A stretch of DNA of 64,000 nucleotides from positions 33,127-97,126 of the IMG/VR virus record IMGVR_UViG_2703718869_000013. One strand, given 5' to 3'. Below, piece by piece: positions 8,810 through 39,354 of the stretch. How positions within the stretch are numbered: position 1 is the first letter of the stretch; every line of letters begins with the position of its first letter. Source of the DNA: a virus. Taxonomy: Duplodnaviria > Heunggongvirae > Uroviricota > Caudoviricetes. The notes beneath the pieces were generated by a model, which saw only the letters and a list, made by a program, of their open reading frames with translations, made no database searches and was not told the DNA's origin. A program made the translations under genes and the position numbers.

Positions 8810-8888
8810 ATTTTTCTGACTCGATCCAGATCGGGTTGGACGATCTGCTCAGAAACCTGCCAGTTTGCTGGCAGGTTTTTTTCTTTTG

Positions 8889-9932
8889 TTAACCTATTGC
8901 TACTGGTTTTAACAAACCAGCATCAAGTAGCTTGCGAGTTAACCACTGCTGGCCTTTACCCGTTAATTGGGGCGTCAGCCGTATCTGGTAGCCATTTTCA
9001 TCATCCAGCACCACTTCTTTCACCGTGAAATACCCGGCGTTAATGTACTGCTGGCGCGGTACGTTTTTGCGCGCACCAAAAGCCATGAGAATGCCGTTCT
9101 GGCGCAACCATGAGAAAAGGGCGTTTTGCTTAAGTCCAACGACCTTTGCAAAGTTCCCGATCAGGATTCCATTAGCCGCTGATACCCGGTCGGCAAAATC
9201 GACTTTAGGGGCTGCGGCCACCAGCTGTTGTTCCAACTGCATTTTCTGTTCTGCCAACTCGGCAGCCAGGCGTAGAGCTTCTGGTAATGTTTGGGGGATC
9301 GATGGGGTAGGGGAGTTTGCCTGCTGCAATTCTTCCAGTTTGTCGATCAGCGAACGGCGGACCGCTTTTGACTCGCGCGCGGCGACTCGCAAGGCTTGTT
9401 TGTAGGTCATGGTGATGACCTCAAAAGAGCGCCCAGCCCTTGTGCCATGGGATTTTGCACTTTTTGTGTAAAATTCACCTTCAAGTTCATCGAGTATTTT
9501 TTCGATGAATTTATTGTTTCTAACCTCTGGTTCTCCACATAACTTGCGTGCCTCATTGACCATCTTCAACAATGTTTGGCTGTCGATTGTGTCTCCGGTG
9601 TTGGGGATGACATTCACGGCTGGTGTTGGCGTAGCTGACGTAACAGGTGCTGGTTTCTCAACATTCAAATTTTTACCGGTCACTCTATGTGCCTCCTTTC
9701 TCATTTCTGCTGCCACCGTTGCGTAACGTAGACGTCCTTGTTCAATCAAATAATCCCTGATCTCGGCTATCAGTAGCCTGTTGATCACAGCCTTATCTGT
9801 TCGGGTATAAAAACGCCTGGTTATCATGAAATAGTTGGCAATTGCGCCGGGGATCTCCCGTGTCGGCATACAGGCAGTATGCAGGGCGATTGCTTCGGCT
9901 ATGTCATTACGGGTGACGAGAGGTTTTTTCAT
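8889..9932 (-). CDS. ant: antirepressor Ant (immI-like module A)
   Basis: 347 aa with a conserved ANT C-terminal domain; start overlaps the stop of a 73-aa icd-like ORF (ATGA), indicating translational coupling. Confidence 0.75.
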   Translation of the reverse strand: MKKPLVTRNDIAEAIALHTACMPTREIPGAIANYFMITRRFYTRTDKAVINRLLIAEIRDYLIEQGRLRYATVAAEMRKEAHRVTGKNLNVEKPAPVTSATPTPAVNVIPNTGDTIDSQTLLKMVNEARKLCGEPEVRNNKFIEKILDELEGEFYTKSAKSHGTRAGRSFEVITMTYKQALRVAARESKAVRRSLIDKLEELQQANSPTPSIPQTLPEALRLAAELAEQKMQLEQQLVAAAPKVDFADRVSAANGILIGNFAKVVGLKQNALFSWLRQNGILMAFGARKNVPRQQYINAGYFTVKEVVLDDENGYQIRLTPQLTGKGQQWLTRKLLDAGLLKPVAIG

Positions 9933-10150
9933 AAAACCCCCTGAACGTCGGCAGAGAAGGGGAGGTTCCAGTAACTAAGTGAATTGCGCGAGTTAGTTGA
10001 AAAACGGGCAGTAAAAATGCAGGGGCCATCAGGCAATTGAGAGCGTGCTTCGTCTTCTGTTGCTGCGATAACGAAGTGATAGTGGTGTTTTTTACAGGAA
10101 TAGAAACGCCAGATGAATTCTTGGCGTGCGCAAGGATTGGCATTAACCAT
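9929..10150 (-). CDS. icd: Icd-like small protein (module A)
   Basis: 73 aa (MVNANPCARQEFIWRF...), conserved in four copies, each directly upstream of and overlapping an ant gene. Confidence 0.6.
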   Translation of the reverse strand: MVNANPCARQEFIWRFYSCKKHHYHFVIAATEDEARSQLPDGPCIFTARFSTNSRNSLSYWNLPFSADVQGVL

Positions 10151-10224
10151 AGTTACGGCCTCACTAACAGGTTTAACAACCTGCTACCCGCTGTCAAACA
10201 GGTGGCAGGACGTGACAGGGTTGA

Positions 10225-10300
10225 CAGACTGGCGTTAGTGAAACCAGCAGGCCGAAGCCTCCCCATCACGCCCCACCATAATTCGGGCGTAACGCGGTTT
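10225..10300 (-). ncRNA. c4: c4-like antisense RNA (module A), approximate ends
   Basis: Conserved core (ggtggggcgtgatggggaggcttcggcctgctggttt on the minus strand) followed by heptamer CACTAAC; complementary GTTAGTG occurs upstream (plus 10345-10351) and at the icd RBS (plus 10162-10168). Confidence 0.55.
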
Positions 10301-10397
10301 ACGGACACAAAAATACCGCAATATCGGAAATCTGCGGTTGTCCGCACTAACATTCAGGCTGTCAAACCTGGTCGCAGAATTTGCTACGACGGCAGAA

Positions 10398-10425
10398 CTA
10401 TAAGCCTGAACGATTAAAAGGTCAA
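10398..10425 (-). promoter_or_regulatory. sigma70-like promoter of module A (TTGACC-N16-TATAGT)
   Basis: Reverse complement gives ttgacc then 16 nt then tatagt; the same element is conserved upstream of modules B and C. Confidence 0.5.
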
Positions 10426-10463
10426 TATGATGCGAAAAGATAGCATTCGCGACTTAAAAATAC

Positions 10464-10480
10464 AAATTTATTAGAGCATT
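10464..10480. promoter_or_regulatory. C1-operator-like site between module A and the sim locus
   Basis: aaatttattagagcatt, 16 of 17 match to the operator consensus; adjacent palindrome tttgtgcaataaatgcacaaa. Confidence 0.55.
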
Positions 10481-10576
10481 ATTTGTGCAATAAATGCACA
10501 AATGGATCTAATAACCTCTTTTTTTTAAAGGCGAAAATATGTACCCTAAATGGGTTATAAGGCAGGTGAGATTATA

Positions 10577-10708
10577 ATGAGAAGACTATTACTACCGTTA
10601 TTATTTATGGCCGGGACTGTTAATGCAGCATCAAGCGTAAAGGAGATTTGTACCGATTATACGAAATACCTTGGGCACGTTTACGCCTTTGCGATCAATG
10701 ACTATTAA
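10577..10708 (+). CDS. small secreted-type ORF, simA-like
   Basis: 43 codons (MRRLLLPLLFMAGTVNAASS...) with a signal-peptide-like N-terminus; below the ORF-track size cutoff, read by eye. Confidence 0.3.
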   Translation: MRRLLLPLLFMAGTVNAASSVKEICTDYTKYLGHVYAFAINDY

Positions 10709-10729
10709 TCCATGCGTAGGAGTGGATTT

Positions 10730-11047
10730 ATGCTGATTCGTTTGTTTTTAGTGCTTTCCTTTTTAACATTTAATGTTTTTGCTGATGAAGTTGACTTTTC
10801 GAAGGTAGATTGCAATTCAGTGGAAACAAGAAAAGCTCTTATTGAAGAATATAACGAAATATTATCGTCATATGGAATAACAGTGGTTGATTCTTATAAT
10901 CAAAAAACTATTCAGAAAGGAATAAATAAACTGGTTTGTTATGGGGTTTACCAATATTCAGATGGCTCTTCGGAGTATGTTATTTATAAAGCATACCCAA
11001 ATAGTCTTGGTGAATTGATTAGTGAGTTTAAACCGATTAATGAGTGA
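10730..11047 (+). CDS. secreted small protein, simB-like
   Basis: ATG at 10730 preceded by AGGAG (10718-10722); signal-peptide-like N-terminus (MLIRLFLVLSFLTFNVFA); AT-rich. The listed ORF starts at 10712. Confidence 0.45.
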   Translation: MLIRLFLVLSFLTFNVFADEVDFSKVDCNSVETRKALIEEYNEILSSYGITVVDSYNQKTIQKGINKLVCYGVYQYSDGSSEYVIYKAYPNSLGELISEFKPINE

Positions 11048-11054
11048 ATGGAAA

Positions 11055-11834
11055 ATGAAATTATTTAATGTAATAACATTTTGTTGTGCTATTTTTGCTG
11101 GAAGCGCGATAGCTGATAATAAATTGCCAGATTGGCTTTCTACTTCAAAAAAAGATTATGATTTAGTAAGGGTGTTCTATTTGTCTGGATTTGCCTCGAA
11201 AGCAATGAATAATCAATTTGGTTATCATTTTCCATCTGAGTTGGTTAATGATTTTAAAGATAATGAATTTGCCGCTCAGGAAAAATGGAATACAATTTCA
11301 ATTGTATATGGTGAAATAAAATCCATAAGAATGGTGAATAATGAACCAATTGTAGAGTTATTTACTCCAGGGGAAAATGCAACGCCACTAAATTATATCA
11401 AATTGAAAGTGTTGGATTCAAAACAAAACTCTCTGTTAAAACTAAAAAAAGGGGATGATATATATGCAGTGTGCTCCGGTGCTAATTTTAGGTTAGTGCC
11501 AATTCTGAGCAACTGCACTCCAGCAACTGACGTCATTGATGCTGCACTCTCTTTTTCTGGTGAATATATGTTCCCTGCTTTTGATTCTTTTTCACCTACT
11601 AAGCAAAACGTCAAATATATATTCACAAATCAAGATCCTGTTCAGATGATGAATTTTATAGGGTACCTATCCTTAGTCGATACAACGAAGGATAAGAATA
11701 AAATGGATATGGTTCGTAAGTGTACGCCTTGGAAGCCGGAATGTTCACAACAATTCGTTGATGTAATGGAAGGATTTGATAACATCATGTATAAATATGA
11801 GAGGGAATTTAAAAATTACATAGAATTAAAATAG
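11055..11834 (+). CDS. sim: exported protein, Sim/SimC-like superinfection exclusion candidate
   Basis: Signal peptide MKLFNVITFCCAIFAGSAIA; about 260 aa; lies next to a c4-icd-ant module as sim does in P1. Alternative starts at 11022 (GTG) and 11040. Confidence 0.45.
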   Translation: MKLFNVITFCCAIFAGSAIADNKLPDWLSTSKKDYDLVRVFYLSGFASKAMNNQFGYHFPSELVNDFKDNEFAAQEKWNTISIVYGEIKSIRMVNNEPIVELFTPGENATPLNYIKLKVLDSKQNSLLKLKKGDDIYAVCSGANFRLVPILSNCTPATDVIDAALSFSGEYMFPAFDSFSPTKQNVKYIFTNQDPVQMMNFIGYLSLVDTTKDKNKMDMVRKCTPWKPECSQQFVDVMEGFDNIMYKYEREFKNYIELK

Positions 11835-11866
11835 TATTTGAAATGATAGTCAATTTAAGTTTTAAC

Positions 11867-11894
11867 AAAACGCCCATTAAAGGGCGTTTTATTG
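11867..11894 (+). terminator. rho-independent terminator after the sim-like operon
   Basis: aaacgccc atta aagggcgttt followed by a T-rich run. Confidence 0.6.
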
Positions 11895-12057
11895 TTTTAC
11901 TCAAAACAACCTGACTCAAAACAACCTGATTGTGTGATAACCATATGATACTCCTCATTCCATCTACACTACCTACTCTAACTTAATGATACCATATTAC
12001 TCCCGGACGGCAATATTCCCACTCAATGGACAAATGACTACTCGTAGAATCGGGTAA

Positions 12058-12648
<591 letters not shown>

Positions 12649-12658
12649 GGGGGCTGAT

Positions 12659-13270
12659 ATGGGGCTTAATGTTGCTTCAGTAAAGTCTTATGTATCTTCG
12701 GCATTAACGACGACATTATTTGGCTCCGGCGTTGGTGAGCGGGAAGTTGGTAAGCTGACGTCAATCATCATGAACAAAATGCTGTTCGCGCAAGGATGGC
12801 AGTTCTCTGTCGAAGTTGATGGTCTGGAGGGGGCAGACTTCTTTGCTAAAGACATTACCTACCACGATTACAGCATCGAATATGAAACGATTAAAATCGG
12901 CGGAGGGAATATCCTTCAGCCAACGGAGCGTTCGCCTGGGCAGATAACAATGATGGTCAGGGACACTGTTGATGGCCTCGTTTTGGACTGGTTTAAGACG
13001 GCAAAAAGTCGGGTGATCAATCCTGACGGTACCGGGAACATACCATCTAAATATTTGCTCAATGTGCGTATTTATCGGTTGCTGTCTTCCGGCTTAACCA
13101 AACTGGAAAATGAGATGACGGTATTCCCGGTCACTACCGGCGATGTCACCTATGCGCGGGATCAGGTTACGGAATTTAAGTCATTCCCAATGACCTTCGC
13201 ATTGCACAGCACGTTTAACCAATCCTCAAGTTCTTTGGCTTCCCTTCTGGGCTTTAGTTTTTCTCTTTGA
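12659..13270 (+). CDS. tail/baseplate-associated protein
   Basis: 203 aa ORF, tight spacing within the operon. Confidence 0.4.
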   Translation: MGLNVASVKSYVSSALTTTLFGSGVGEREVGKLTSIIMNKMLFAQGWQFSVEVDGLEGADFFAKDITYHDYSIEYETIKIGGGNILQPTERSPGQITMMVRDTVDGLVLDWFKTAKSRVINPDGTGNIPSKYLLNVRIYRLLSSGLTKLENEMTVFPVTTGDVTYARDQVTEFKSFPMTFALHSTFNQSSSSLASLLGFSFSL

Positions 13271-13284
13271 ATTAAGGAGCAAGG

Positions 13285-14166
13285 ATGCTTTTACCCCTTT
13301 TCCCGCTACCATCGCGGCCAACTGAATTGATCCAGTTCCGTCAGCCAAATATTGCTGATGCGATGCGTTTCAACTCGATAACACCGGAGGAACAAGAACA
13401 ACAGACAACGGCATATTTAAAAGCCTTGCTGGCTGAACCCGTGAAACATGATCCCCTGACATGGACGGCGCAGGACCGGATTACCGCGTTATGGTGGATA
13501 TTTACTGGCTCCCGTGAAACACCGGTCGAGACATTCACCTACACCTGTAAACATTGCGGTAAAGAGCATTATTACGATTGTGATATGAATGCTCTGGCTG
13601 AAGATATCCAGGTCCTGGAAGTGGAACCTTTCATTGACGATATTGAGGTGTCTGTAGAGGGAGTACCTTATCAATGGCGTATCGTGCCGCTTGATGGTTG
13701 GGCAATGGAAATGCTGGAGATGCGCCGTGCAGCATTGCCACCTGAAGACGACGCGGAATTCAAAGAAGCGATCGTTGATTTGCGTTTTTGGGAATTCGCT
13801 TATCAGTGTGAGCTTTATAACGATGTTAGTGGTACTCGTGAAGATCAGGCTGAGCGTCGTTATGAAACGATCAAACGGATGGCCATTGATACTGAATTTA
13901 TGAAGCTGGCGGCACACATCCGGCTGGCTCATGAAAAGCTCGAACATGGTTTACCGTGCTACATCGATAAAGGCGAAATGCGTCTTCGTCTCCCGCCGCA
14001 CAAATGCCCAAACCAGGATACAAAGGAGTCCACAGAGGGTGCGTACACCCGTCTGTGGGTGCCCTTTCGGGCTACCGACTTCATTCCACAGGTGGGGATT
14101 GAAAAGCTATCAGACCTTAGTGTCCAACCTGGTTTTGTATGGGGGTATACCGATTCAGGACGCTGA
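13285..14166 (+). CDS. tail morphogenesis protein with Cys-rich motif
   Basis: 293 aa; YTCKHCGKEHYYDCD motif; immediately upstream of the sit-like gene. Confidence 0.4.
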   Translation: MLLPLFPLPSRPTELIQFRQPNIADAMRFNSITPEEQEQQTTAYLKALLAEPVKHDPLTWTAQDRITALWWIFTGSRETPVETFTYTCKHCGKEHYYDCDMNALAEDIQVLEVEPFIDDIEVSVEGVPYQWRIVPLDGWAMEMLEMRRAALPPEDDAEFKEAIVDLRFWEFAYQCELYNDVSGTREDQAERRYETIKRMAIDTEFMKLAAHIRLAHEKLEHGLPCYIDKGEMRLRLPPHKCPNQDTKESTEGAYTRLWVPFRATDFIPQVGIEKLSDLSVQPGFVWGYTDSGR

Positions 14167-14247
14167 AAGGCTTACTGAATCCTATGCGTTTTTCCTGTTG
14201 GAGAAACTGGAAGAAAAACTTAAACCGAAACGGTAGGCGATAAGATC

Positions 14248-20202: not shown

Positions 20203-20280
20203 CAATCACCCCGTCCGCAGGGCGGGGTGACAAGTTACTTCTCTTACAATGAGGCTTCACAACAGTGATTAGGGAAAATC

Positions 20281-20715: not shown

Positions 20716-20726
20716 GGATATGCTTG

Positions 20727-23576
20727 ATGAATGACGTTACAGTTGTTACATCGGTTACTTACCCATCACCCGAGTCGTTGGCTCTGGTTGCTGATGTGCA
20801 ATACCACGAACCATATCTGTCAGCCGCGCTAAACCGAAAATTCAGGGGGATTGTTGACCCGGGATTTTATGCCGGTTTCTTACCTAAGCCTGGCGGTGGG
20901 ATGAACCTGTTAATCACCTCAGTGGATGGAGATAAAACCGCAGGCGCGGCGTCGGTGGATATTGGTGAATTCTACCAGGTAACTATTCAGCAATGTACGG
21001 ATATTCCTCTTGCACTTAGTGCAGGCAAGAAATATGCAATTGTGCTGAAGGGAAGATACCTCCTTGGAGAGGATACCTATCAGGTTAATACCGCGTCACA
21101 TATTCATGCGGCTGAATTTGTTACCAGAACCTATACCGATTCATATCAGTTAGGAGATGGGGAGCTGCTTGTTTGTACGGTGAATATCCCTGCTGGAGTA
21201 TCAGCCATTACCCAGGAGATGATTGATACATCCGAGCGTATTAACCGCACGATCGGCATTGATATCTCAGACTCTGTAACCAGTAGCAGAAGTGATGTTG
21301 CTGCAAGTTCGCTGGCAGTTAAAAAAGCCTACGATCTGGCGAACAGTAAGTATACGGCGCAGGATGCAAGCACAACGCAAAAGGGATTAGTTCAGCTCAG
21401 TAGCGAAACTAACAGCGACAGCGAAACAATGGCGGCTACCCCTAAAGCCGTTAAGTCTGTAAAAGATCTTGCTGATACCAAAGCGCCAATAGAAAGCCCG
21501 AGTCTGACAGGAACGCCAACCGCGCCGACGGCAGCGCAAGGTACAAATAGCACGCAGATCGCAAATACAGCCTTTGTTAAGGCAGCTATAACGGCACTTA
21601 TCAACGGTGCACCTGGCACACTGGATACGCTTAAAGAAATAGCTGCTGCGATCAATAACGACCCGAATTTCAGCACAACTATCAACAATGCTCTGGCTCT
21701 TAAAGCTCCTTTAGCAAGTCCTGCATTAACGGGAATACCTACTGCGCCTACCGCTGCACAGGGTACGAATAACACGCAGATTGCTACGACCGCTTATGTA
21801 AGAGCTGCCATATCCGCATTGGTTGGTTCATCACCAGAAGCTCTTGATACCCTGAATGAGCTTGCCGCAGCACTTGGTAATGACCCGAACTTTGCGACAA
21901 CAATGACAAATGCGCTGGCAGGCAAACAGCCTCTGGATGCAACTTTAACCGCGCTTGCTGGTCTTGCTACAGGCGCAAATAAATTGCCGTACTTTACCGG
22001 TACAGACACTATTTCTCAGACTGACTTAACGTCAGTCGGTCGCGATATTCTGGCCAAAACAAGCGTCCTTGCTGTTATCCAATACCTTGATTTAAGAGAA
22101 CTTGGCACAAGCGGTGAAAAGATCCCCCTGTTGAGCACGGCTAACAAATGGGGTGCACGCCAGACTTTCAACGGTGGGATCACCGGGGCGCTGACAGGGA
22201 ACGCCGACACCGCGACGAAATTAAAAACAGCCATAAACATTAATGGCGTCAGATTCGATGGTTCGGCTGACATTAATATCAATACTCTGGTATCTCGCGG
22301 TCGCGTAACGGCCCTAGAGGCGAATGCACAGGGAACATCCGGGATTCAGCTGTATGAGGCATACAACAATGGCTACCCTTCCCCCTATGGCAATGTGCTT
22401 CACCTTAAAGGTGCCACCGCTGCTGGCGAAGGTGAGTTATTCATTGGCTGGAGTGGCACGAGCGGTGACCATGCGCCCGTACATATCCGTTCGCGGCGTG
22501 ATACTGATTCTGCCAACTGGTCTGAATGGGCGCAGGTCTATACGTCAAAAGATTCAATTCCCGGCGTCAATGCCAAAGGGGATCAGGACACCTCTGGTAA
22601 TGCGGCTACAGCGACCAAGTTGCAGACAGCATGTACTATCAATGGCGTCTCGTTTGATGGTTCTACTGATATCACTTTAACCGCTGCGCATGTTGCTGCT
22701 TTTGCCAGAAGAGCAACGGATACGTATGCCGATGCGGATGGGGGCGTTCCCTGGAATGCCGAATCAGGCGCTTACAATGTCATTCGCTCTGCCGACAGCT
22801 ATATTCTGGTTAACTTCTATACCGGAGTCGGAAGTTGCCCGACCTTGCAGATGAAGGCGCATTACAGAAATGGTGGTCTGTTCTACCGTTCTTCAAGAGA
22901 CGGTTATGGTTTTGAGGAAGACTGGGCAGAAGTTTATACCTCGAAAAATCTTCCACCAGAAAGCTACCCAGTCGGCGCACCAATCCCGTGGCCATCAGAT
23001 ACCGTTCCGTCTGGTTATGCCCTGATGCAGGGGCAGACTTTTGACAAATCTGCATACCCGAAACTTGCAGCGGCTTATCCGTCAGGCGTTATTCCTGATA
23101 TGCGTGGCTGGACGATTAAGGGCAAGCCCGGCAGTGGTCGTGCCGTATTGTCTCAGGAACAGGACGGCATTAAATCGCACACCCACAGCGCCAGCGCATC
23201 CAGTACGGATTTGGGGACGAAAACCACATCGTCGTTTGATTACGGTACTAAAACGACCAGTTCATTTGATTACGGCACAAAAACTACGAATAGCGCTGGA
23301 AATCATTCACACAATATACCTGTTGGTCACACTGGCGCGGGGAATGGTGTATCAGCCGGTTTTAACGCTGCGTTAGGTACTGGTACCACGTCGAGCGCAG
23401 GCGAGCATGCTCACAATGTATATATCGGTGCCCATAACCACACTATCGGCATTGGTGCTCATGCCCATTCTGTCATTATTGGTCCCCACGGACACACCAT
23501 CACCGTTAACGCTACGGGTAACGAAGAAAACACCGTAAAAAACATCGCATTTAACTATATTGTGAGGCTTGCATAA
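20727..23576 (+). CDS. S: tail fibre protein S with lambda Stf-like distal tip
   Basis: ATG at 20727 preceded by AAGGA; repeated motif [20 protein letters not shown] of the T4 gp37 / P1 S / Mu S family; C-terminus has His-x-His boxes and ends [13 protein letters not shown] as lambda Stf does. Confidence 0.85.
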
Positions 23577-24154
23577 TGACATTCAGAATGAGTGAACAAT
23601 CACGGACCATAAAAATTTATAATCTACTGGCTGGAACCAATGAGTTTATTGGTGAAGGTGATGCATACATTCCACCTCATACAGGTCTGCCTGCAAACAG
23701 TACCGATATTGCCCCGCCAGATATTCCGGCTGGCTTCGTGGCCGTTTTCAACAGTGATGAGGCATCGTGGAATCTCGTTGAAGACCATCGGGGAAAAACC
23801 GTCTATGACGTGGCTTCCGGCGACGCGTTATTTATTTCTGAACTTGGCCCATTACCGGAAAATGTCACCTGGTTATCCCCGGAAGGGGAGTTTCAGAAGT
23901 GGAACGGCACAGCCTGGGTGAAAGATGCAGAAGCAGAAAAACTGTTCCGGATCCGGAAGGCGGAAGAAACAAAAAACAGCCTGATGCAGATGGCCAGTGA
24001 GCATATTGCGCCACTTCAGGATGCCGTAGATTTGGATATTGCGACGGAGGAAGAGGCATCGTTACTGACTGCATGGAAGACATATCGGGTATTGTTGAAT
24101 CGTGTTGATACAACAGTAGCATCGGATGTTGAGTGGCCAGTCGCCCCGCAATAA
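23576..24154 (+). CDS. tfa: tail fibre assembly protein (lambda Tfa-like)
   Basis: 192 aa, [44 protein letters not shown]..., near-identical over most of its length to lambda Tfa as I recall it. Confidence 0.85.
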
Positions 24155-24197
24155 AAGGATAAAGCCATCGATAGAAATATTGATGGCTTCATGTACT

Positions 24198-26884: not shown

Positions 26885-26885
26885 C

Positions 26886-30514: not shown

Positions 30515-33502
30515 ATGAGCTTAAGCGATCAGGTGGTAATGGCCACCAGCATAGAAACGCTGATCGAGCTGCTAAAGAACCTGCCCGATTATGGGCGGGT
30601 TTCGTATGTGGTGACAGCGAAGGGAGACGAGGTAAAAACAGCGTTTGATATCGTCGATGCCTCAGTTCTTTTGGTATCCAATACTCTGGATGGGAAAATT
30701 AATCCAGACTATCCCCAGGAACTTCAGCCGCGCGACCGGACCCGCGCATCCAGCCTTCTTCAGGTTAACCAGATATCCAAAGATTTGCGGCCTGCTCAGC
30801 TTACCGATTCCGGTTTATCCAGCCATGGCGCGCCGATAATTGGTGAGGACAATGCCGTTGAGTCAGGTAATGGACGGACCATGGGGATCATCAAAGCCTA
30901 TCAGGACGGCAATGCGGATCGGTATCGTGAGTACCTGATTGATCATGCGACCGAATTCGGCATACGACCTGAAAAGGTTGAATCAATGACGGCTCCGGTA
31001 CTGGTGCGCCGCCGGTTAACTAAGGTTGACCGCGTTCAGTTTGCCAAGGACTCAAATATTTCTGATCTTCAGGAAATGGCAGCCAGTGAAAAGGCTTTTG
31101 TTGATGCCGACAGCATAACACCGGCGATGATGGCGCTTTTTAACCCGTCAGAAAGCGGAGATCTGCTTAGCCGCAGTAATGACGCGTTTATTCGCGGATT
31201 TATGACGCAAGTTGGTGCCACACAGGCGGCTGGCCTTGTAACTGAAGATGGGCGACCAACACGGCAACTTGTTGACCGTATACAAAACGCGATCTTTGCC
31301 AAGGCATATAAGGATGCGCGCCTGGTAAGGATGGTTGCAGAAGAACCTGATCCGGATATGCGTAATGTTCTGACGGCGCTTAATGCGGCAGCCAATGATT
31401 TTGTCCAGATGCAGGCTTTATCAGGAGAAGCGCACAAGCAGGCTGTGACAACTATTGTTGATGGCATTGAGACAGCGGATAGCCTCGATAAAAAGGCGCT
31501 GGCGGCATTGAAAGATGCGGTAGACCTGGTAAGGCAATCGAAGGAGTCAGGCCAGCATATTACCGATGTTATTGCTCAGGGGGATATGTTCAGCGAAACG
31601 GCCCCGGAAGTGAAAGCACTCGCGTTGTTCATCGTCGCGAATAACCGTAGCGCGAAGCGTATGGCCACCGCCTTTAAGTTGATGGCGCAACGTATCAATG
31701 ATGAGTTACAGCACCAGGGCCAGGCGCTCGGGGATATGTTTGGCGGCGGCGATGTGTCGTTACAGGATATCCTTCGCCAAGTATCTCAGGAACTGGAAAA
31801 CGAAGGTATGCAAGGGATATCTGGCGGTCTTTTCGAGTCAGCTTCTGGCGGTAGTTACAACGGTGTTGCTCCATATACCAGCTTGCTATTACATCGGGCA
31901 TCCGGCATCAAAGACATTATTCATCTGATCAGGCTGCTTTCCCGTACAGATCCCCAGGATGAACAGCTTGTTCAAGTGCTTGCGCATTTTGTTCGAATGC
32001 CTGTTGCCGACGTGAAAAAATGGTGCCGATTATTCGGTATCAGCAATTCGTTACTTCGCGGCTTGTTAAATCACGCATCCTCCCTTGGGCGCGATGGCTT
32101 TGACGAGATAGCGCAGGCGATAAAAAACGGAGATATGCCACCAGCTATTGACTGGTTTTCCATTCGCCCAACCAGGGTGAAAGCATTCCTTAGCGCGGCG
32201 CATTCGGCATCACCATTGGCAGAAATGGTTCAGAGGTTATCGCTCATATTCACAGACCATACCGCGTTGGGTGATCTGACTCTGGACGAGATGAAAGAAG
32301 CCTCCATTCAGTGGGCCGATCAACAAAATGAGGTTAACTCAGACTTCTTGCCAGCATTCAGGAAGGCCGTTAGTAAAGCGGATGATGCCCGTGGAATTCT
32401 GAAGGCATTTAAGGCATTGCAAAGTCGGGTTAATAAACATGTCGGTGATATCGATGGGGTAACGGCGGAAGGCAGGGATATCCTTAAAGAGCACGGCATA
32501 ACGCCAGAGTTTATTGATGAGATCAGGACGGATATGCAGCGTGAGGTCGTATCGTCCCTGCAAATTGTAGTCAGAGCGTTGGCGGATGCTAATCCGAAGA
32601 GTGCGGCCATTGTTAACCGGGTTATTGGTGATATTGAAGCATCGGAGGGCATGGGGGCGCTGAAACACTTCCTTTCGCGAGCGTTTAATCCTAACGGCAA
32701 TATTCTCCCCGGCATTATTGGTGAGGCTAAAAAGTATGTCAGCGAAGAAGAACTTGAGCATCTTGACCAACTACTTAAGCGATTCTCATATAACCCGCAG
32801 ACACGCTGGCAAATGAATCAGCGAAGTATGGGTTCGGTCCACGAGAAAGTGTTATCCGCCATGAACAGTGCGATCGCCAACTCATCCGTATCTGAAGAAA
32901 AAGCTCTTGAGTGGGCCGACTCTTTTATCACGGAAGAAGTGGAAGAAGCCCGCGCTGGACAGAATGGTGGGATAGACCTGCGCAAGGAACTTGCTGATAT
33001 TTATCGCCTGACCGGCGGTAAAATTTCGACCTTATCAAAGGTGGTTCACCACCAGGGAAGGGCATATGCAAATCTTAATGGTGTTGTTGCTGTCAATTTG
33101 AACGATGAAAATGCAAGTGCACTGTGGCACGAGCTGGGTCATCATCTTGAGTACAGTAACCCAGGTTTGTTAGAGAAAGCCCGGTCATTCCTGAAGGCCA
33201 ATGTTGAAGGGGATAAGCCATCTTTCGTCAATATCGGTGGGCGTGGCAAGCCTGAATGGTGCTTCAGATCTCGATTGAGTAATATTTATATGGCGAAGGT
33301 ATACCCGCCAGCCTCAGTAAGTAACACCGGGAAAATTCGGCAGAAATCACCGACTATTTCCAAAACGTCAGCAACGGAAGTATTCTCTATGGCTCTTCAG
33401 TTGTATCATGGCAAAGAGGCCGCTGCCGCATCACTGATGAATGGTGACGGATTGCTGGAACTGTTATTAGGTGTGGCAAAGGAGCTAAATAATGCAGATT
33501 AA
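30515..33502 (+). CDS. ddrB: DdrB-like large protein with HExxH motif
   Basis: 995 aa; position in the dar operon; HELGHH at 33128-33145. Confidence 0.45.
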   Translation: MSLSDQVVMATSIETLIELLKNLPDYGRVSYVVTAKGDEVKTAFDIVDASVLLVSNTLDGKINPDYPQELQPRDRTRASSLLQVNQISKDLRPAQLTDSGLSSHGAPIIGEDNAVESGNGRTMGIIKAYQDGNADRYREYLIDHATEFGIRPEKVESMTAPVLVRRRLTKVDRVQFAKDSNISDLQEMAASEKAFVDADSITPAMMALFNPSESGDLLSRSNDAFIRGFMTQVGATQAAGLVTEDGRPTRQLVDRIQNAIFAKAYKDARLVRMVAEEPDPDMRNVLTALNAAANDFVQMQALSGEAHKQAVTTIVDGIETADSLDKKALAALKDAVDLVRQSKESGQHITDVIAQGDMFSETAPEVKALALFIVANNRSAKRMATAFKLMAQRINDELQHQGQALGDMFGGGDVSLQDILRQVSQELENEGMQGISGGLFESASGGSYNGVAPYTSLLLHRASGIKDIIHLIRLLSRTDPQDEQLVQVLAHFVRMPVADVKKWCRLFGISNSLLRGLLNHASSLGRDGFDEIAQAIKNGDMPPAIDWFSIRPTRVKAFLSAAHSASPLAEMVQRLSLIFTDHTALGDLTLDEMKEASIQWADQQNEVNSDFLPAFRKAVSKADDARGILKAFKALQSRVNKHVGDIDGVTAEGRDILKEHGITPEFIDEIRTDMQREVVSSLQIVVRALADANPKSAAIVNRVIGDIEASEGMGALKHFLSRAFNPNGNILPGIIGEAKKYVSEEELEHLDQLLKRFSYNPQTRWQMNQRSMGSVHEKVLSAMNSAIANSSVSEEKALEWADSFITEEVEEARAGQNGGIDLRKELADIYRLTGGKISTLSKVVHHQGRAYANLNGVVAVNLNDENASALWHELGHHLEYSNPGLLEKARSFLKANVEGDKPSFVNIGGRGKPEWCFRSRLSNIYMAKVYPPASVSNTGKIRQKSPTISKTSATEVFSMALQLYHGKEAAAASLMNGDGLLELLLGVAKELNNAD

Positions 33503-33812: not shown

Positions 33813-34015
33813 CAGGAATTGGCATAGAATTGATTGTTCAAATTTCATCCATCACATAGACGACTTCATGTTATTTGCCTGATAATTATGGCCTTAATAA
33901 CCCATGTATATCTTTTGGGTTATATTCTTATCTTTAACAAGGTTATAAGAGCGACAATGATAAATTTATCACTATCGCTCTTATAACTCTTTGTTAGCTA
34001 TAGCTTTAAACAAAT

Positions 34016-34303
34016 TTAGTTTTGAGGCAATGCAACAAAAGTCAGCTCTTGATCTTTGATTAATGCTTTTGTTTGTTTGGATGTAATTCCCACTTTAGTT
34101 TTTACATCATTGTGGAGCTTCTTATACGCTTTTATTTCATCTGCTGTATATCGGAAGCCATTTGCACTGTTACTGGACAGTTGAAGTGCGATTACGTCAT
34201 CACTGACACCCGCATCGCTTAGCTTAGCTATGCGGGTAATAGTGTGGCCTGCGCGAGTGTTTGTGGTGGATATTTTGTCTAAGAAATTGTTCAGTTTTTC
34301 CAT
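34016..34303 (-). CDS. hypothetical protein (AT-rich island)
   Basis: 95 aa ORF in AT-rich DNA between hairpin elements; no family recognised. Confidence 0.35.
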   Translation of the reverse strand: MEKLNNFLDKISTTNTRAGHTITRIAKLSDAGVSDDVIALQLSSNSANGFRYTADEIKAYKKLHNDVKTKVGITSKQTKALIKDQELTFVALPQN

Positions 34304-34549
34304 TGTTTACAACCTCTTACTTGAGTTTATTGCCAGTAGAATTGCCACTATTCTTTTGCCTCAACGAATCACAATGTACTGGAATAAGAAACTATGAGCA
34401 ATACTTACGCTTTGCGAATACAGAAGATGAATAATCAACTTATTACTAAAATGTTAATAATATTATTCTGTTACATAGTGTTCGCTATAACAATCGGGAG
34501 TTGAATGCTAATTCAATAAATAAAGAACCCGCCAATTGGCGGGTTCTTT

Positions 34550-35332
34550 TTAATCACTTTCCACTTCTTCCGTGGTGTTTTCTTGCAGTTCTGTTAATGC
34601 AGCACGACATAGGTTCCGGGCATTGGCTATAGCCACACTTTTGACTTCATCCGTCATCGTGCAGGTAATGTACTGATCGAGTTCTTCAGCGCGGATGATG
34701 CTTTTGCCAATCAGAAACTGTATTTGCCAGAGCAGATCGGCATCCATAATCAGAATTTCTGCCGGGCCTTCAGGGCCAGCCGGGAAGGAAACATAAGACT
34801 GTTTGCCCAGGCCGACAACTCGACAACTTGCTTCAAGAATTGCGCGCTTGAGGTCTGACTTTATAACGGAAACAGGTTGATTTTCACCAGTGATTACGCC
34901 GTTGACATGGAAAGGCATGTAGCTTGAAATACGCTCCACTTTCCACACACCAGCAAGCGATCCTTCATGCAGCACAATGGGGGTAACCGCGAGTTTCATC
35001 TCACCATATAGCTGCTGGCAGATAGCTGGATTGCTGAATACATCTAAAGGCTCACATTCAAACAGCGGCGCAATCTGCATGAGGTCCATCATGGTCATCC
35101 CTGGGGTACGAGCAGTAATGAATCTGCGCATACCAGTATCCATTGCGCTCCAGATTGCTACACCATGCTTTTTGCTCACTTCTTCAGTAAAGCCAAGGTG
35201 GCACATGATGGTTTTTTCGATAGCCAGATCAGAGATCGAAACCTTTTCGCCAGGCACACCATCATTATTGATGGTCACTTCGACACTCTGACCATTACGC
35301 AGGCGGTATTGAATTGCTTTAGTATTTTCCAC
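34550..35332 (-). CDS. hypothetical protein, third gene of the ssb operon
   Basis: 260 aa; 6-bp gap from the upstream gene; hairpin gaacccgcc aatt ggcgggttc at its 3' end. Confidence 0.5.
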   Translation of the reverse strand: MENTKAIQYRLRNGQSVEVTINNDGVPGEKVSISDLAIEKTIMCHLGFTEEVSKKHGVAIWSAMDTGMRRFITARTPGMTMMDLMQIAPLFECEPLDVFSNPAICQQLYGEMKLAVTPIVLHEGSLAGVWKVERISSYMPFHVNGVITGENQPVSVIKSDLKRAILEASCRVVGLGKQSYVSFPAGPEGPAEILIMDADLLWQIQFLIGKSIIRAEELDQYITCTMTDEVKSVAIANARNLCRAALTELQENTTEEVESD

Positions 35333-35338
35333 GTTAAA

Positions 35339-36016
35339 TCACTCCACTACAAACCAGTCACATGCCAGTAAGTCGCCTACAGAAGGAACCCACGGAACAA
35401 CTACACCTTGTGCATTTTTTAAGGCGAAATAAGCACCATACGGAACGAGGTCGCCGGGGAAATATCCCTTAATGGCTTCCATTCGTGCCGGGTACTGTCC
35501 TTCAGGAACCAGCCAGCAGAATTGGTTTTCGCCGTTCCACCCGCGTCGGGCAACTTTCTTGCCATCCTTCAGCCACATCAGCGCGTCAGAAAAGTCGGCT
35601 GCTTCAAGGTCGATTTCTTCTTGTAGAGTAGCGATACCGCCAGCAGAAATAGTTACGTCCCTGGCTGTAATGAATGTCACCCCATTGTGACCTTCAATGC
35701 TGAGCGATACCCCATTTTCGAAGAAGTCGTTAGTCCGACTAAAGCCTTCTTCAAATGTTTTTTCTGGCGAATAGGACAGAGATCCGTCCTCATAAGCGAC
35801 CAGATATCCGCCAATTTCTGGTCGGTGTTTTTGCAAAAATATTTTATCAACATGGACTTTTACCCCTTCTGGCTCAACGACTTCGATGTTGCAAAAAAGG
35901 ACCACATCCATTAGGGCGATAATTTCGATATCTTTGATTTTTGAGGCGCGAACTGTTTTATGGCTTTTGTATTTTGGAAGTGCCGTCAAAAGCTCTTTCG
36001 TTGTCATGTTATTCAT
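35339..36016 (-). CDS. protein with C-terminal DUF2829 / Tad2-like domain (candidate anti-defence sponge)
   Basis: C-terminal 80 aa FSDALMWLKDGKKVARRGWNGENQFCWLV...WVPSVGDLLACDWFVVE fit the DUF2829 pattern as I remember it (F-x-E/D-A-L..LK-x-GKKV-x-R-x-GW...DLLA-x-DW). Confidence 0.5.
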   Translation of the reverse strand: MNNMTTKELLTALPKYKSHKTVRASKIKDIEIIALMDVVLFCNIEVVEPEGVKVHVDKIFLQKHRPEIGGYLVAYEDGSLSYSPEKTFEEGFSRTNDFFENGVSLSIEGHNGVTFITARDVTISAGGIATLQEEIDLEAADFSDALMWLKDGKKVARRGWNGENQFCWLVPEGQYPARMEAIKGYFPGDLVPYGAYFALKNAQGVVVPWVPSVGDLLACDWFVVE

Positions 36017-36213
36017 AGTCTTTCCTCTGCTTAAAACCTGATGTATTGCGCCTTCAGGTGGGTCAGGAATGTTTTCCCACCAGCGAACGCAATATCTCGG
36101 GGTGTTCTATTCGTTAAAAGCGCGTGCCATTGCCAACTTTGGCGTTTTTGAGCGAGTTCGTGCTTTTGTCGGCGTCTGGACCACCGCTTTTTTTTCAGTC
36201 GTTTTTTACACAT

Positions 36214-36702
36214 TCAAAACGGAATATCGTCGTCAAAGTCCATTGGAGGTTCGTTATTAGCGTTGCTCTGAGGTTTACCGCCACCACTGTATTGCTGGTG
36301 GTTTTGAGGTTGGTTTGATTGCCCCCAGCCATTTGTGGACTGTGAATCGTCGCGACGAGCGCCGATCATTTGCATGGTGCCGCCCTGGCTGACGATAATT
36401 TCCGTCGTGTAACGTTCTACACCGGCGTCATCTGTCCACTTACGGGTTTTAAGTTTCCCTTCGATGTAGACCTGAGAACCTTTTCGTAAATACTCACTCG
36501 CAATTTCAGCAAGTTTTCCGAACAAAACGACTTTATGCCATTCTGTTTGCTCTTTCTGTTGGCCCGTTTGCTTGTCGCGCCATGATTCATTCGTTGCGAT
36601 GCTGAGTCTTCCGACCGCTCCGCCATTTGGTATATACCTGATCTCCGGGTCTTGCCCCAGGGTACCAATCAGGATGACTTTGTTTACACCGCGTTGTGCC
36701 AC
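36214..36702 (-). CDS. ssb: single-stranded DNA-binding protein
   Basis: 162 aa; OB-fold N-terminus typical of SSB, Gly/Gln-rich linker, acidic tail DFDDDIPF. Confidence 0.9.
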
Positions 36703-36721
36703 TTATCTTACCTAATAAAAT

Positions 36722-36738
36722 AAATTAATTAGAGCAAT
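36722..36738. promoter_or_regulatory. C1-operator-like site in the divergent ssb / lyz promoter region
   Basis: aaattaattagagcaat, 16 of 17 match to the operator consensus (reverse complement orientation). Confidence 0.55.
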
Positions 36739-36871
36739 AATGTATATCTTTGAAACGTAGCTAACAAGTGATTTGCATTATCCTGTGCCTTCTAAAGGGA
36801 TCGAGTCAGTCGGTATTGGCTGTGAATGGGTGTTTGTCCTGGAGCGTAAAAAATTCGCTTATGAGGTCTTT

Positions 36872-37429
36872 ATGAAGGGAAAAACAGCCGCAGGAGGCGG
36901 TGCAATTTGCGCTATCGCGATGATGATTACCATCGTGATGGATAATGGCAATGTGCGAACCAACCAGGCGGGGCTTGAGCTTATCGGAAACGCTGAAGGT
37001 TGCCGACGTGATCCATACAAGTGCCCGGCGGGTGTATGGACCGACGGGATCGGTAATACACACGGGGTAACGCCTGGCGTGCGAAAAACCGACCAGCAAA
37101 TCGCCGCTGATTGGGAAAAGAATATCCTGATCGCTGAACGCTGTATTAACCAGCACTTCCGGGGCAAAGACATGCCCGATAATGCCTTCAGCGCAATGAC
37201 AAGCGCGGCATTCAATATGGGATGCAATAGTTTACGGACCTACTACAGCAAAGCGCGAGGCATGCGAGTCGAAACGTCCATCCACAAGTGGGCGCAGAAA
37301 GGGGAATGGGTGAATATGTGTAACCATCTCCCTGATTTTGTGAACAGTAACGGCGTCCCCCTGCCCGGGTTAAAGATTCGCCGTGAAGAAGAACGCCAGC
37401 TTTGCCTGACGGGGCTTGTCAATGAATAA
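36872..37429 (+). CDS. lyz: SAR endolysin (P1 Lyz-like, T4-lysozyme family)
   Basis: 185 aa from MKGKTAAGGGAICAIAMMITIV (signal-anchor-release N-terminus) with catalytic E...CRRD...T triad region ELIGNAEGCRRDPYKCPAGVWTDGIGNT; the listed ORF starts earlier at 36773. Confidence 0.9.
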   Translation: MKGKTAAGGGAICAIAMMITIVMDNGNVRTNQAGLELIGNAEGCRRDPYKCPAGVWTDGIGNTHGVTPGVRKTDQQIAADWEKNILIAERCINQHFRGKDMPDNAFSAMTSAAFNMGCNSLRTYYSKARGMRVETSIHKWAQKGEWVNMCNHLPDFVNSNGVPLPGLKIRREEERQLCLTGLVNE

Positions 37430-37673
37430 ACTCCGGCAGCTCCGCCGACTTTCGACAATGAAGTTATCGCTGGCGGCGATAGTTTTTGACTCGATTTTCA
37501 TGGCGGTATATGTGCTCAATGAGACGTGGCCACTGGAACCACTATTATATGCCGGGCTTCGGCTGTGCCTGACATTTTTGAGCATGGCTGCAAGATTGAT
37601 GCAGCAGAAAGAAACCGCTTCAGATTGCCCACGTCGCGCGGTGCGCAAATATATGGCACGCAGGCGAAGATGA
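37422..37673 (+). CDS. small membrane protein overlapping the lyz stop (lysis-associated candidate)
   Basis: ATG at 37422 overlaps the lyz stop (ATGAATAA); two hydrophobic segments; basic C-terminus; the listed ORF starts at 37416. Confidence 0.3.
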   Translation: MNKLRQLRRLSTMKLSLAAIVFDSIFMAVYVLNETWPLEPLLYAGLRLCLTFLSMAARLMQQKETASDCPRRAVRKYMARRRR

Positions 37674-37683
37674 TTTAACCATT

Positions 37684-37717
37684 ATTGCTCTAATAAATTT
37701 GATTTATTAGAGCAAAT
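37684..37717. promoter_or_regulatory. paired inverted C1-operator-like sites upstream of module B
   Basis: ATTGCTCTAATAAATTT (perfect consensus, 37684-37700) followed by inverted atttattagagcaaat (37702-37717). Confidence 0.7.
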
Positions 37718-37741
37718 AACCTACCATCGAACACGGCTCTA

Positions 37742-37770
37742 TTGATCTCATCGTCGTTCAGGCTTATAGT
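37742..37770 (+). promoter_or_regulatory. sigma70-like promoter of module B (TTGATC-N17-TATAGT)
   Basis: ttgatc 37742-37747, tatagt 37765-37770. Confidence 0.5.
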
Positions 37771-37869
37771 TCCACCGTCGTAGCAAATTCTGCGACCAGG
37801 TTTGACAGCCTGAATACTTGTGCGGACAACCGCAGATTTCCGATATTGCGGTATTTTTGTGTCCGTAAA

Positions 37870-37950
37870 ACCGCGTTACGCCCGAATTATGGTGGGGCGT
37901 GATGGGGAGGCTTCGGCCTGCTGGTTTCACAAGTGCCAGTCTGTCAACCC
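37870..37950 (+). ncRNA. c4: c4-like antisense RNA (module B), approximate ends
   Basis: Core ggtggggcgtgatggggaggcttcggcctgctggtttca followed by a' CACAAGT (37928-37934) and b' CTGTCA; complementary ACTTGTG at 37816-37822 and 38000-38006, and TGACAG upstream and downstream. Confidence 0.6.
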
Positions 37951-38017
37951 TGTCACGTCCTGCCACCTGTTTGACAGCGGGTAGCAGGTTGTTAATTCAA
38001 CTTGTGAGGCCGTAACT

Positions 38018-38239
38018 ATGGTTAATGCCAATCCTTGCGCACGCCAAGAATTCATCTGGCGTTTCTATTCCTGTAAAAAACACCACTATCACTTCGTTAT
38101 CGCAGCAACTGAAGACGAAGCACGCTCTCAATTGCCTGATGGCCCCTGCATTTTTACTGCCCGTTTTTCAACTAACTCGCGCAATTCACTTAGTTACTGG
38201 AGCCTCCCCTTCTCTGCCGACGTTCAGGGGGGTTTATGA
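38018..38239 (+). CDS. icd: Icd-like small protein (module B)
   Basis: 73 aa, stop overlaps the ant start; RBS overlapped by the ACTTGTG target heptamer. Confidence 0.6.
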   Translation: MVNANPCARQEFIWRFYSCKKHHYHFVIAATEDEARSQLPDGPCIFTARFSTNSRNSLSYWSLPFSADVQGGL

Positions 38240-39279
38240 AAAAACCTCTCGTCACCCGTAATGACATAGCCGAAGCGATCGCCCTGCATACTGCCTGTAT
38301 GCCGACACGGGAGATCCCCGGCGCAATTGCCAACTATTTCATGATAACCAGGCGTTTTTATACCCGAACAGATAAGGCTGTGATCAACAGGCTACTGATA
38401 GCCGAGATCAGGGATTATTTGATTGAACAAGGACGTCTACGTTACGCAACGGTGGCAGCAGAAATGAGAAAGGAGGCACATAGAATGACCAGTAATAATT
38501 TGAATGTTAAAAAACCAGCATCTGTTGCTTCAGCTACGCCATCACCAGCTGTGAATGTTATCTCCAACACTGGAGATACAATCGACAGCCAGACGCTGTT
38601 AAAGATGGTTAATGAGGCGCGCAAGCTATGTGGGGAAAATGAGATCCGCAATAACGATTTTCTCAATAGAATTAAGGATGAACTTGATGGGGAATTTTAC
38701 GAAACTTTCGTAAAATCCCATGGCACAAGGGCCGGGCGCTCTTTTGAGGTCATAACCATGACCTACAAACAAGCCCTGCGAGTCGCCGCGCGCGAGTCAA
38801 AAGCGGTCCGCCGTTCGCTGATCGACAAACTGGAAGAATTGCAGCAGGCAAACTCCCCTACCCCATCGATCCCCCAAACATTACCAGAAGCCCTACGTCT
38901 GGCTGCCGAGTTAGCAGAACAGAAAATGCAGTTGGAACAACAGCTGGTGGCCGCAGCCCCTAAAGTCGATTTTGCTGACCGGGTATCAGCGGCTAATGGA
39001 ATCCTGATCGGGAACTTTGCAAAGGTCGTTGGACTTAAGCAAAACGCCCTTTTCTCATGGTTGCGCCAGAACGGCATTCTCATGGCTTTTGGTGCGCGCA
39101 AAAACGTACCGCGCCAGCAATACATCAACGCCGGGTATTTCACGGTGAAAGAAGTGGTGCTGGATGATGAAGATGGTTACCAGATACGGCTGACGCCCCA
39201 ATTAACGGGTAAAGGCCAGCAGTGGTTGACGCGTAAACTGCTCGATGCAGGTTTATTAAAGCCTGTAGCGGCTGAGTGA
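38236..39279 (+). CDS. ant: antirepressor Ant (module B)
   Basis: 347 aa, about 90 percent identical to the module A Ant by eye; conserved ANT C-terminal domain. Confidence 0.75.
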   Translation: MKKPLVTRNDIAEAIALHTACMPTREIPGAIANYFMITRRFYTRTDKAVINRLLIAEIRDYLIEQGRLRYATVAAEMRKEAHRMTSNNLNVKKPASVASATPSPAVNVISNTGDTIDSQTLLKMVNEARKLCGENEIRNNDFLNRIKDELDGEFYETFVKSHGTRAGRSFEVITMTYKQALRVAARESKAVRRSLIDKLEELQQANSPTPSIPQTLPEALRLAAELAEQKMQLEQQLVAAAPKVDFADRVSAANGILIGNFAKVVGLKQNALFSWLRQNGILMAFGARKNVPRQQYINAGYFTVKEVVLDDEDGYQIRLTPQLTGKGQQWLTRKLLDAGLLKPVAAE

Positions 39280-39309: not shown

Positions 39310-39354
39310 AGTGATTTCAGATACCCCGGCAGCCGCCGGGGTTATTTTTGGTGG

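Follow-up and report, generated by a model that had tools for sequence, protein, structure and literature searches.

Four paralogous immI cassettes with different C4 codes probably account for the large inverted repeats of a P1-like phage-plasmid

The window analysed here is a stretch of 64,000 nucleotides (nt) from the IMG/VR virus record IMGVR_UViG_2703718869_000013 (positions 33,127 to 97,126). Judged by its sequence, it is part of a P1-like phage-plasmid and is collinear with P1. The element aligns with P1, P7 and many P1-like plasmids in collinear order at 95-98.5% identity, and we observed matches in hundreds of P1-like plasmids from Escherichia coli, E. albertii, Salmonella and Shigella; the best matches share 95-99% identity over parts of the window. 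Positions 36000-54500 are collinear, in reverse, with P1 coordinates 21740-1, followed by c1/pacB. Four modules of the window, A to D, each carry icd and ant genes and together form large inverted repeats, which a preliminary description of this DNA had proposed as sites of recombination that could give rise to genome isomers. Module A and its flanks are 98.5% identical to the P1 immI-kilA-sim region, and P1 itself has module A only.

At the sequence level, each of the four modules is a complete P1-type immI cassette. In P1 and P7, the a' and b' boxes of the C4 RNA pair with a1/b1 and a2/b2 of the immI transcript, where b2 and the ribosome-binding site of icd overlap. The two phages are the textbook case of heteroimmunity set by antisense RNA, which lies in differences between the short C4 and target box sequences. 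The tripartite immunity of P1, immI included, was reportedly described by Heinrich, Velleman, Schuster, Citron and others, and C4 itself is said to have been worked out by Citron and Schuster in 1990 and 1992, Heinrich et al. in 1994 and 1995 and Biere et al. in 1992. The roles of Ant1/Ant2 and C4 are summarised in PMC8546580.

All four cassettes are built from the same parts. The C1 operator ATTGCTCTAATAAATTT has nine matches in the window against 0.03 expected, and four of these lie at the cassette heads, with 0-2 mismatches. Just downstream of the operator, A, B and C have a promoter-like TTGACC/TTGATC-17-TATAGT of sigma-70 type at a homologous position, and cassette D has no promoter-like site above the scan threshold; the scan showed no overall enrichment (24 sites, 24.5 expected), and only the positional conservation at the cassette heads is meaningful. 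The Rfam C4 family (RF01695, gathering threshold 45 bits) was passed by all four cassettes with 68.6-75.9 bits, with additional matches to c4-a1b1 at A and B and to isrK at D. The four C4 RNAs share one predicted fold, consisting of a long stem, a tetraloop hairpin and the b' loop. In every cassette icd encodes 73 amino acids (aa) and overlaps ant1 by ATGA, an ant2 start codon with a Shine-Dalgarno sequence lies in frame at an offset of 249 nt, and a GC-rich hairpin follows ant; icd is predicted to be translationally coupled to ant1/ant2. The four Ant proteins (347-372 aa) all contain KilAC (ANT, PF03374; E 3e-31 to 5e-31), to which Ant C and Ant D add ORF6N (PF10543). Only cassette A is followed by kilA-repL. 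B, C and D end tail-to-tail with pro, a c8-like open reading frame (ORF) and c1, respectively, and are thus immI cassettes minus the replicon part. Except for the kilA-repL lacking after B-D, the cassettes have every sequence-level feature of P1/P7 immI.

Cassette A (8851-10480, minus strand) occupies the canonical P1 slot upstream of kilA-repL. It has the C1 operator at 10464-10480, the promoter-like site at 10425-10397, a1 at 10359-10365, b1 at 10345-10351, the C4 RNA at 10198-10283 with b' (CACTAAC) at 10234-10240, a2 at 10191-10197 and b2 at 10162-10168. Then follow icd (9929-10150), ant1 (8889-9932, 347 aa) with the ant2 start codon at 9681-9683 behind its Shine-Dalgarno sequence, and the hairpin (8851-8880). 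This cassette is 98.5% identical to P1 immI and scores 68.8 bits for C4 and 55.5 bits for c4-a1b1. Cassette B (37684-39309, plus strand) lies in the slot between lyz and pro, with its operator at 37684-37700, promoter-like site at 37742-37770, a1 at 37802-37808, b1 at 37816-37822, C4 RNA at 37885-37970 (b' CACAAGT at 37928-37934), a2 at 37971-37977 and b2 at 38000-38006. Its icd spans 38018-38239 and its ant1 38236-39279 (347 aa), with the Shine-Dalgarno-preceded ant2 start codon at 38485-38487 and the hairpin at 39292-39309; the scores are 68.6 bits for C4 and 57.1 bits for c4-a1b1.

Cassette C (45310-47000, plus strand) sits between mat and the c8-like ORF/cre. The operator is at 45310-45326, the promoter-like site at 45368-45396, a1 at 45428-45434, b1 at 45442-45448, the C4 RNA (71.7 bits) at 45511-45596 with b' (CATGTAC) at 45554-45560, a2 at 45597-45603 and b2 at 45626-45632; icd (45644-45865) and ant1 (45862-46974; 370 aa, ORF6N + KilAC) follow, with the ant2 start codon at 46111-46113, again after a Shine-Dalgarno sequence, and the hairpin at 46983-47000. 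This cassette exactly replaces ref (window 45248-46976): the flanks align with mat and the c8-like ORF of CP013030, which has ref between them. Cassette D (51020-52720, minus strand), in the slot between c1 and pacB, has a divergent C4 scaffold. Its operator-like site at 52704-52720 has 2 mismatches, and an isrK-like leader (52552-52629, minus strand; 60.8 bits) contains a1 (52597-52603) and b1 (52580-52587). The C4 RNA (75.9 bits) is at 52440-52527, a2 at 52429-52435, b2 at 52397-52404, icd at 52164-52385, ant1 at 51049-52167 (372 aa, ORF6N + KilAC), the ant2 start codon with its Shine-Dalgarno sequence at 51916-51918 and the hairpin at 51020-51041. The isrK match coincides with the a1/b1 leader of cassette D, and the isrK family may therefore be the counterpart of the target/leader portion of a C4-type antisense module. 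At present the c4 region appears in RefSeq as a pseudogene ('ash family protein').

The four cassettes differ in the short boxes through which C4 would recognise its targets. Cassette A has the P1-type b-box GTTAGTG, B has ACTTGTG, C has GTACATG and D has GTCTAAGG. As a-box, A and B both have TTGACAG, C has TTAGCAG and D has TTGGCCT/TTGGTCT. Boxes b1/b'/b2 and a1/a'/a2 covary perfectly, giving three complementary copies per cassette, and the target complementarity is an exact 7-nt match at all three places in A-C and likewise in D, with one G-U pair. In the cassettes b2 abuts GAGG, the icd Shine-Dalgarno sequence. Calculated duplexes between the b' loop and its target reach -11.6 to -13.9 kcal/mol for cognate pairs, compared to -2.1 to -8.1 kcal/mol for non-cognate ones. 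The boxes of the P7 cassette are GATTGTG/TTAGCAG and those of P1 GTTAGTG/TTGACAG, and the differences among A-D are therefore at least as large as the one between P1 and P7. Because the code changes coordinately at three places per cassette, the four cassettes are predicted to be mutually heteroimmune and non-redundant.

Codes outside the window show the same covariation. We also observed a third C4 scaffold, labelled 'ash family protein' by the Prokaryotic Genome Annotation Pipeline (PGAP), with b-box GCAAAAGG or GTCAAAGG and a-box TTGGAAC or TTGAGAC; its boxes covary as well, and it is found in slot A of some plasmids and in slot D of others. In CP013030, the slot-B cassette has the b-box ACGAATG, and cassette C of the window (45308-47010) has GTACATG, despite 96.4% identity between the two. 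Specificity thus seems to shift by small coordinated substitutions on a conserved scaffold.

To place the cassettes among relatives, we used a census of PLSDB and a multi-cassette sample of 10 elements from E. coli and E. albertii with 36 cassettes, for which P7 and p15648-1 were also fetched. The conserved 3' end of ant occurs in 667 PLSDB records at 1,007 places, or ~1.5 per record; in a spread PLSDB sample, single-copy records were the majority, two or three copies were frequent, and four were rare. The cassettes lie in defined slots: A between sim and kilA, B between lyz and pro, C on the mat/cre side, D between c1 and pacB, and E between the baseplate operon and dbn-ban. Across the 10 multi-cassette elements the slot orientations are constant (A-, B+, C+, D- and E- in window orientation), with extra cassettes always tail-to-tail with the neighbour's 3' end. 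The four-slot architecture, with the same boundaries and orientations, is present in NZ_CP077553.1, NZ_CP117572.1, NZ_CP034163.1 and NZ_CP074905.1. Since the slot orientations are fixed, the inverted-repeat geometry reads as a by-product of slot occupancy. The 36 cassettes comprise nine b-box types, all three-way complementary, including further variants on D-like scaffolds. The fifth slot, E, was seen in NZ_CP013030.1 (72380-73632), where it lies between the baseplate operon and the dnaB-like dbn-ban; this plasmid has no slot C, and its slot E carries GTACATG, elsewhere a slot-C code. An ant gene at an unexpected coordinate of NZ_CP013030.1 had made this plasmid a candidate rearrangement, which was ruled out: the gene marks slot E, and there is no inversion.

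The history of cassette B shows how such a repeat pair can form. We compared its core (window 37754-39119), which spans a1/b1, C4, a2/b2, icd and most of ant, with the slot-A cassette of p15648-1 (NZ_CP009051.1) and found only 2 differences in 1,366 nt (99.85% identity). In the lyz-side operator region of cassette B, the final ~150 nt of its ant and the pro flank, the sequence goes with the slot-B lineage of other plasmids. Compared to cassette A of the window itself, cassette B is only 94% identical. Since the core is closer to p15648-1 than to the window's own cassette A, the A/B repeat is not a local duplication; it is inverted because a slot-A-type specificity unit was copied into the oppositely facing slot B. 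In p08_4358-1 (NZ_CP074905.1), a P7-type cassette fills slot A and a P1-type cassette slot B, the latter 97.6% identical to cassette A of the window, so that P7 and P1 codes occur together with C and D codes in one element. The lyz-B-pro region of this plasmid matches the window in a single piece at 96.1%. There, too, a slot-A-type cassette has entered slot B, as an independent event. Cassette C of the window, for its part, aligns over 1,708 bp with the CP013030 cassette in slot B, at 96.4% identity. These alignments indicate that the cassettes are exchangeable units bounded by a conserved leader and the KilAC-coding 3' end, and that the evolutionary trace of their recombination is block replacement, not inversion of the bracketed segments.

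The repeats themselves were delimited by self-comparison of the window and gapped blastn. The arms of the A/B inverted repeat lie at 8870-10427 and 37740-39298 and consist of a main block of 1431 nt (8870-10300 / 37868-39298, 93%) and a second block of 130 nt (10298-10427 / 37740-37869, 92%). Those of C/D, which comprise icd-ant only, lie at 45671-46985 and 51038-52358, with blocks of 623 nt (45671-46293 / 51736-52358, 93%) and 569 nt (46417-46985 / 51038-51606, 92%). The A/B arms are 27.3-27.6 kb apart and the C/D arms 4.05 kb at their inner edges. By gapped blastn, A and B share 94.0% identity over 1,517 bp with 88 mismatches and 3 gaps, and their longest perfect tracts measure 207, 143, 115 and 106 bp. 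C and D share 89.5% over 1,315 bp; this alignment has 17 gap openings, its longest perfect tracts are 175 and 85 bp, and the C4/leader parts of C and D are unrelated in sequence. A chance or low-complexity repeat was ruled out, as the arms are 1.3-1.5 kb of coding sequence. The preliminary description was thus right about the inverted orientation of both pairs and the ~27 kb between A and B, but the near-identity that it ascribed to the modules does not hold for either pair.

Its account of the enclosed genes agrees with our findings. The 27.3-kb segment between A and B (10428-37739) holds sim, the baseplate, tail and tail-fibre genes, lysis genes, the dar region, ssb and lyz; these were assigned because the segment is collinear with P1 and with NZ_CP077553.1, an annotated relative. 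P1 and all relatives examined have this segment in the same orientation with respect to kilA-repL and pro-prt. The 4.05-kb segment between C and D (46986-51037), whose orientation is invariant among relatives, holds the c8-like ORF, cre (47576-48607, minus strand), an exact loxP (49430-49463), coi and c1 (50165-51016, plus strand); pacB starts at 52724, beyond cassette D. The B/C and A/D pairs are direct repeats of ~81-88% identity. For B (37740-39298) and C (45366-46985), identity is 81-87% with a 132-bp perfect tract, and recombination between them would remove pro and prt (head processing and portal) and leave a defective, plasmid-only derivative. Besides those of the ant cassettes, self-comparison revealed no inverted repeats of at least 100 nt in window positions 1-64000, and a P1-type C-segment with its ~0.6-kb inverted repeats therefore seems to be absent from the window. 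In relatives, that tail-fibre region contains a serine acetyltransferase gene.

For the inverted state, we built synthetic junctions joining the kilA flank to the reverse-complemented lyz/ssb flank, and the mat flank to the reverse-complemented c1 flank, and searched PLSDB and 5,426 complete E. coli genomes. No inverted junction was found among the 529 (A/B) and 708 (C/D) PLSDB records that contain the flanks, nor among the 529 and 703 complete E. coli genomes that do. The C and D cassettes surround cre-loxP-c1 in the window's orientation in 41 PLSDB records, one of which, NZ_CP027443.1, matches the whole 7.3-kb C-to-D region in a single piece at 99.1%. A cassette is present in slot B of 11 PLSDB and 15 RefSeq records, in each case as lyz > cassette > < pro. 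No fixed inversion was therefore sampled in at least two species. RecA pathways require a minimum homology of roughly 25-30 bp, which the 207- and 175-bp perfect tracts far exceed; arm recombination is thus physically possible. In lambda, ~800-bp inverted repeats invert through host RecABCD at ~4e-4 per lytic cycle when 0-4% diverged and at ~9e-7 when 22% diverged (PMC2327257). By analogy, an inversion frequency of something like 1e-4 to 1e-6 through RecA would be plausible here, and inversion is probably a low-frequency event instead of a fixed or programmed feature of the element.

We estimate a probability of about 75% that the element is a P1-like phage-plasmid with four paralogous, complete immI cassettes in four conserved slots and with four C4 codes, and that its large inverted repeats are a by-product of this arrangement. 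None of the 10 multi-cassette elements has the same b-type twice, where shuffling expects 6.2 duplicates and gives zero in 0.01% of shuffles; this is suggestive of non-redundancy within elements, although the statistic is confounded by the linkage of slot and type and by the shared ancestry of the sampled plasmids. Other points also weigh against this interpretation. The a-box is common to A and B, so partial cross-repression between these two is possible. The extra cassettes may not be expressed or may have decayed in part, and slot C of p06-3542 has a truncated icd. Finally, consensus assemblies show the majority orientation only and are compatible with minority isomers, which leaves the isomer idea unsupported rather than refuted.

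If the inverted ant modules recombined often, the element would be a mixture of two to four genome isomers in the manner of flip-flop systems. The length and perfect tracts of the arms would permit this, lambda repeats with 4% divergence do invert at ~4e-4 per lytic cycle, and ectopic recombination between cassettes did occur in evolution. We nevertheless consider this very unlikely, given the zero inverted junctions and the single orientation of the 41 C+D records and the 11 and 15 slot-B records in two or more species. In true flip-flop systems, the recombination itself keeps the repeats near-identical, whereas the arms here are not homogenised (94.0% and 89.5%) and cassette B is nearer to another plasmid's cassette than to A, which argues against frequent exchange between arms. 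A crossover within the first 250 bp (5') of A/B would moreover uncouple C4 from its targets and would presumably be counter-selected. The recombination-enhancing gene ref is absent from the element: it has been replaced by cassette C, and tblastn found no Ref homologue in the window, so Ref-stimulated recombination between the arms was ruled out here. No site-specific recombinase sites turned up at the arms, although no search was aimed at cix-like 26-bp sites, and Cre/loxP is represented in the window by a single site.

Extra modules or a chimeric cassette B could also stem from collapsed or mis-joined repeats, or from two mixed P1-like plasmids, since short-read assemblers can be misled by repeats of this length and the core of B barely differs from a slot-A allele found in another lineage. 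As the main explanation such an artefact is ruled out, and in any form hardly credible: the same four slots are present in at least four complete plasmids that are independent of one another, NZ_CP074905.1 matches lyz-B-pro in one piece and likewise carries a cassette of slot-A type in slot B, and NZ_CP027443.1 matches C-to-D in one piece. The high identity and shared gene content within each pair could instead suggest recent duplication within the genome, with A/B and C/D as redundant paralogues that are not functionally differentiated. This is highly improbable: the matches of B to p15648-1 and of C to CP013030 (closer than C to D) exclude a simple recent duplication, the four C4 codes are distinct and internally compensated, and the slots are orthologous across species. 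A further possibility is that B-D are inert, hitch-hiking remnants and that the repeats have no role in either inversion or immunity. The extra cassettes lack downstream kilA-repL, one relative has the truncated icd in slot C noted above, and about 60% of P1-like plasmids manage with one cassette. However, all icd, ant1 and ant2 reading frames are intact, and operators, promoters, C4 fold and three-site complementarity are preserved. Since complementarity is kept through compensatory changes, purifying selection on the pairing is indicated, and we regard inert remnants as unlikely.

Four immI cassettes with different codes would be expected to act as follows, if they work like those of P1 and P7. 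Each cassette would constitutively supply its own C4 and thereby keep its own icd-ant silent, because C4 would pair with a2/b2 of its own transcript and block icd translation, so that no Ant antirepressor is made. By homology to P1 (98.5% for A), Ant would otherwise inactivate the C1 repressor, which would also control the operator-overlapping promoter, as in P1. A resident with four C4 types would silence incoming ant cassettes of those four types, and an invader with four ant cassettes would escape any resident that lacks one matching C4. Such an invader would make Ant, C1 would be inactivated, and lytic growth would follow, with the resident induced too. Selection might then favour accumulating different codes, never the same twice, and shuffling them; new codes would arise by coordinated box changes at three sites, and recombination through the conserved ends would shuffle the cassettes. 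We find the odds evenly balanced that up to four or five heterospecific immI cassettes form a combinatorial immunity/anti-immunity code in this way, with the repeats as the footprint of an arms race and not as an inversion device.

Cassette A is the Op51-c4-icd-ant1/ant2 operon of P1/P7 immI, and B-D have the same parts in the same order; the box differences between them resemble those behind P1/P7 heteroimmunity. P1 and P7 differ in having one cassette each, which drives kilA-repL, compared to four cassettes, slots and codes in the window, where B-D lack kilA-repL, Ant C and D have ORF6N, and D has a divergent C4 scaffold with an isrK-like leader. Extra ant copies have been noted before: in RCS47, pTZ20_1P and pSvP1, an ant gene lies between pacB and c1, and homologues of icd-ant1/2 are found close to mat/res (Venturini et al. 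2019, PMC6906374); these correspond to slots D and C here. There they are mentioned in passing as insertions, with no analysis of C4, boxes, slots, exchange or geometry (PMC6906374). For immI in several cassettes and for inversion isomers of P1-like elements, we found no more than passing mentions, with many subscription papers, e.g. the D6/Casjens comparison, outside the search.

Related systems share single aspects of this arrangement. In P4/phiR73 (CI RNA) and Gifsy-1 (isrK-anrP-antQ), a processed antisense RNA pairs with repeated targets in its own transcript, and cassette D provides a link to them, as its leader scores as isrK (RF01394) and its RNA as C4 (clan CL00128). These systems differ in serving satellite-phage immunity or prophage anti-Q control, and they do not stack multiple heterospecific units. 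The immI region of P22 (ant, arc, mnt, sar) is likewise a secondary immunity region with an antirepressor silenced in lysogens partly by antisense RNA and with heteroimmunity, but its proteins and RNA are unrelated and it is single-copy. Large inverted repeats bracket unique segments here as they do in herpes simplex virus 1 (L/S), the plastid inverted repeat, the yeast 2-micron plasmid (FLP) and P1 (Cin/cix). In those flip-flop systems the arms are near-identical or have a dedicated recombinase site and both orientations are abundant, whereas the arms in the window are 6-10.5% diverged and all relatives have one orientation.

Other features of the window were recorded alongside. Directly downstream of cassette A lies kilA (7924-8724, minus strand), which has KilA-N and KilAC domains; its KilAC part is a weak third copy within the repeat family D1. 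An Rfam IS009 match (192 bits; 23919-24117, plus strand) falls wholly within a 192-aa ORF (23576-24154), the counterpart of the relatives' tail-fibre-assembly gene, and is probably coding-sequence homology rather than a small RNA. At the position of darB/res/mod in P1, the window has a low-GC island (42200-44400, 36% GC) with genes for an AraC-type helix-turn-helix protein (42675-43409, minus strand) and an EAL-domain protein (43662-44351, plus strand); this gene pair also occurs in p08_3342-2, p08_4358-1 and pEA50_2.

The repeats are a practical hazard for assembly and annotation, and the idea of inversion matters little unless isomers prove abundant. If the proposed cassette code is true, superinfection immunity and mutual induction of P1-like phage-plasmids would be combinatorial and not binary. 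Resistance genes are often found on P1-like elements, which are common in E. coli, Shigella, Salmonella and E. albertii, so the code would bear on the co-existence, displacement and induction of phage-plasmids and thereby on the spread of their cargo, as well as on P1-based tools. It would also offer a directly testable system for the evolution of RNA immunity specificities through three coordinated changes.

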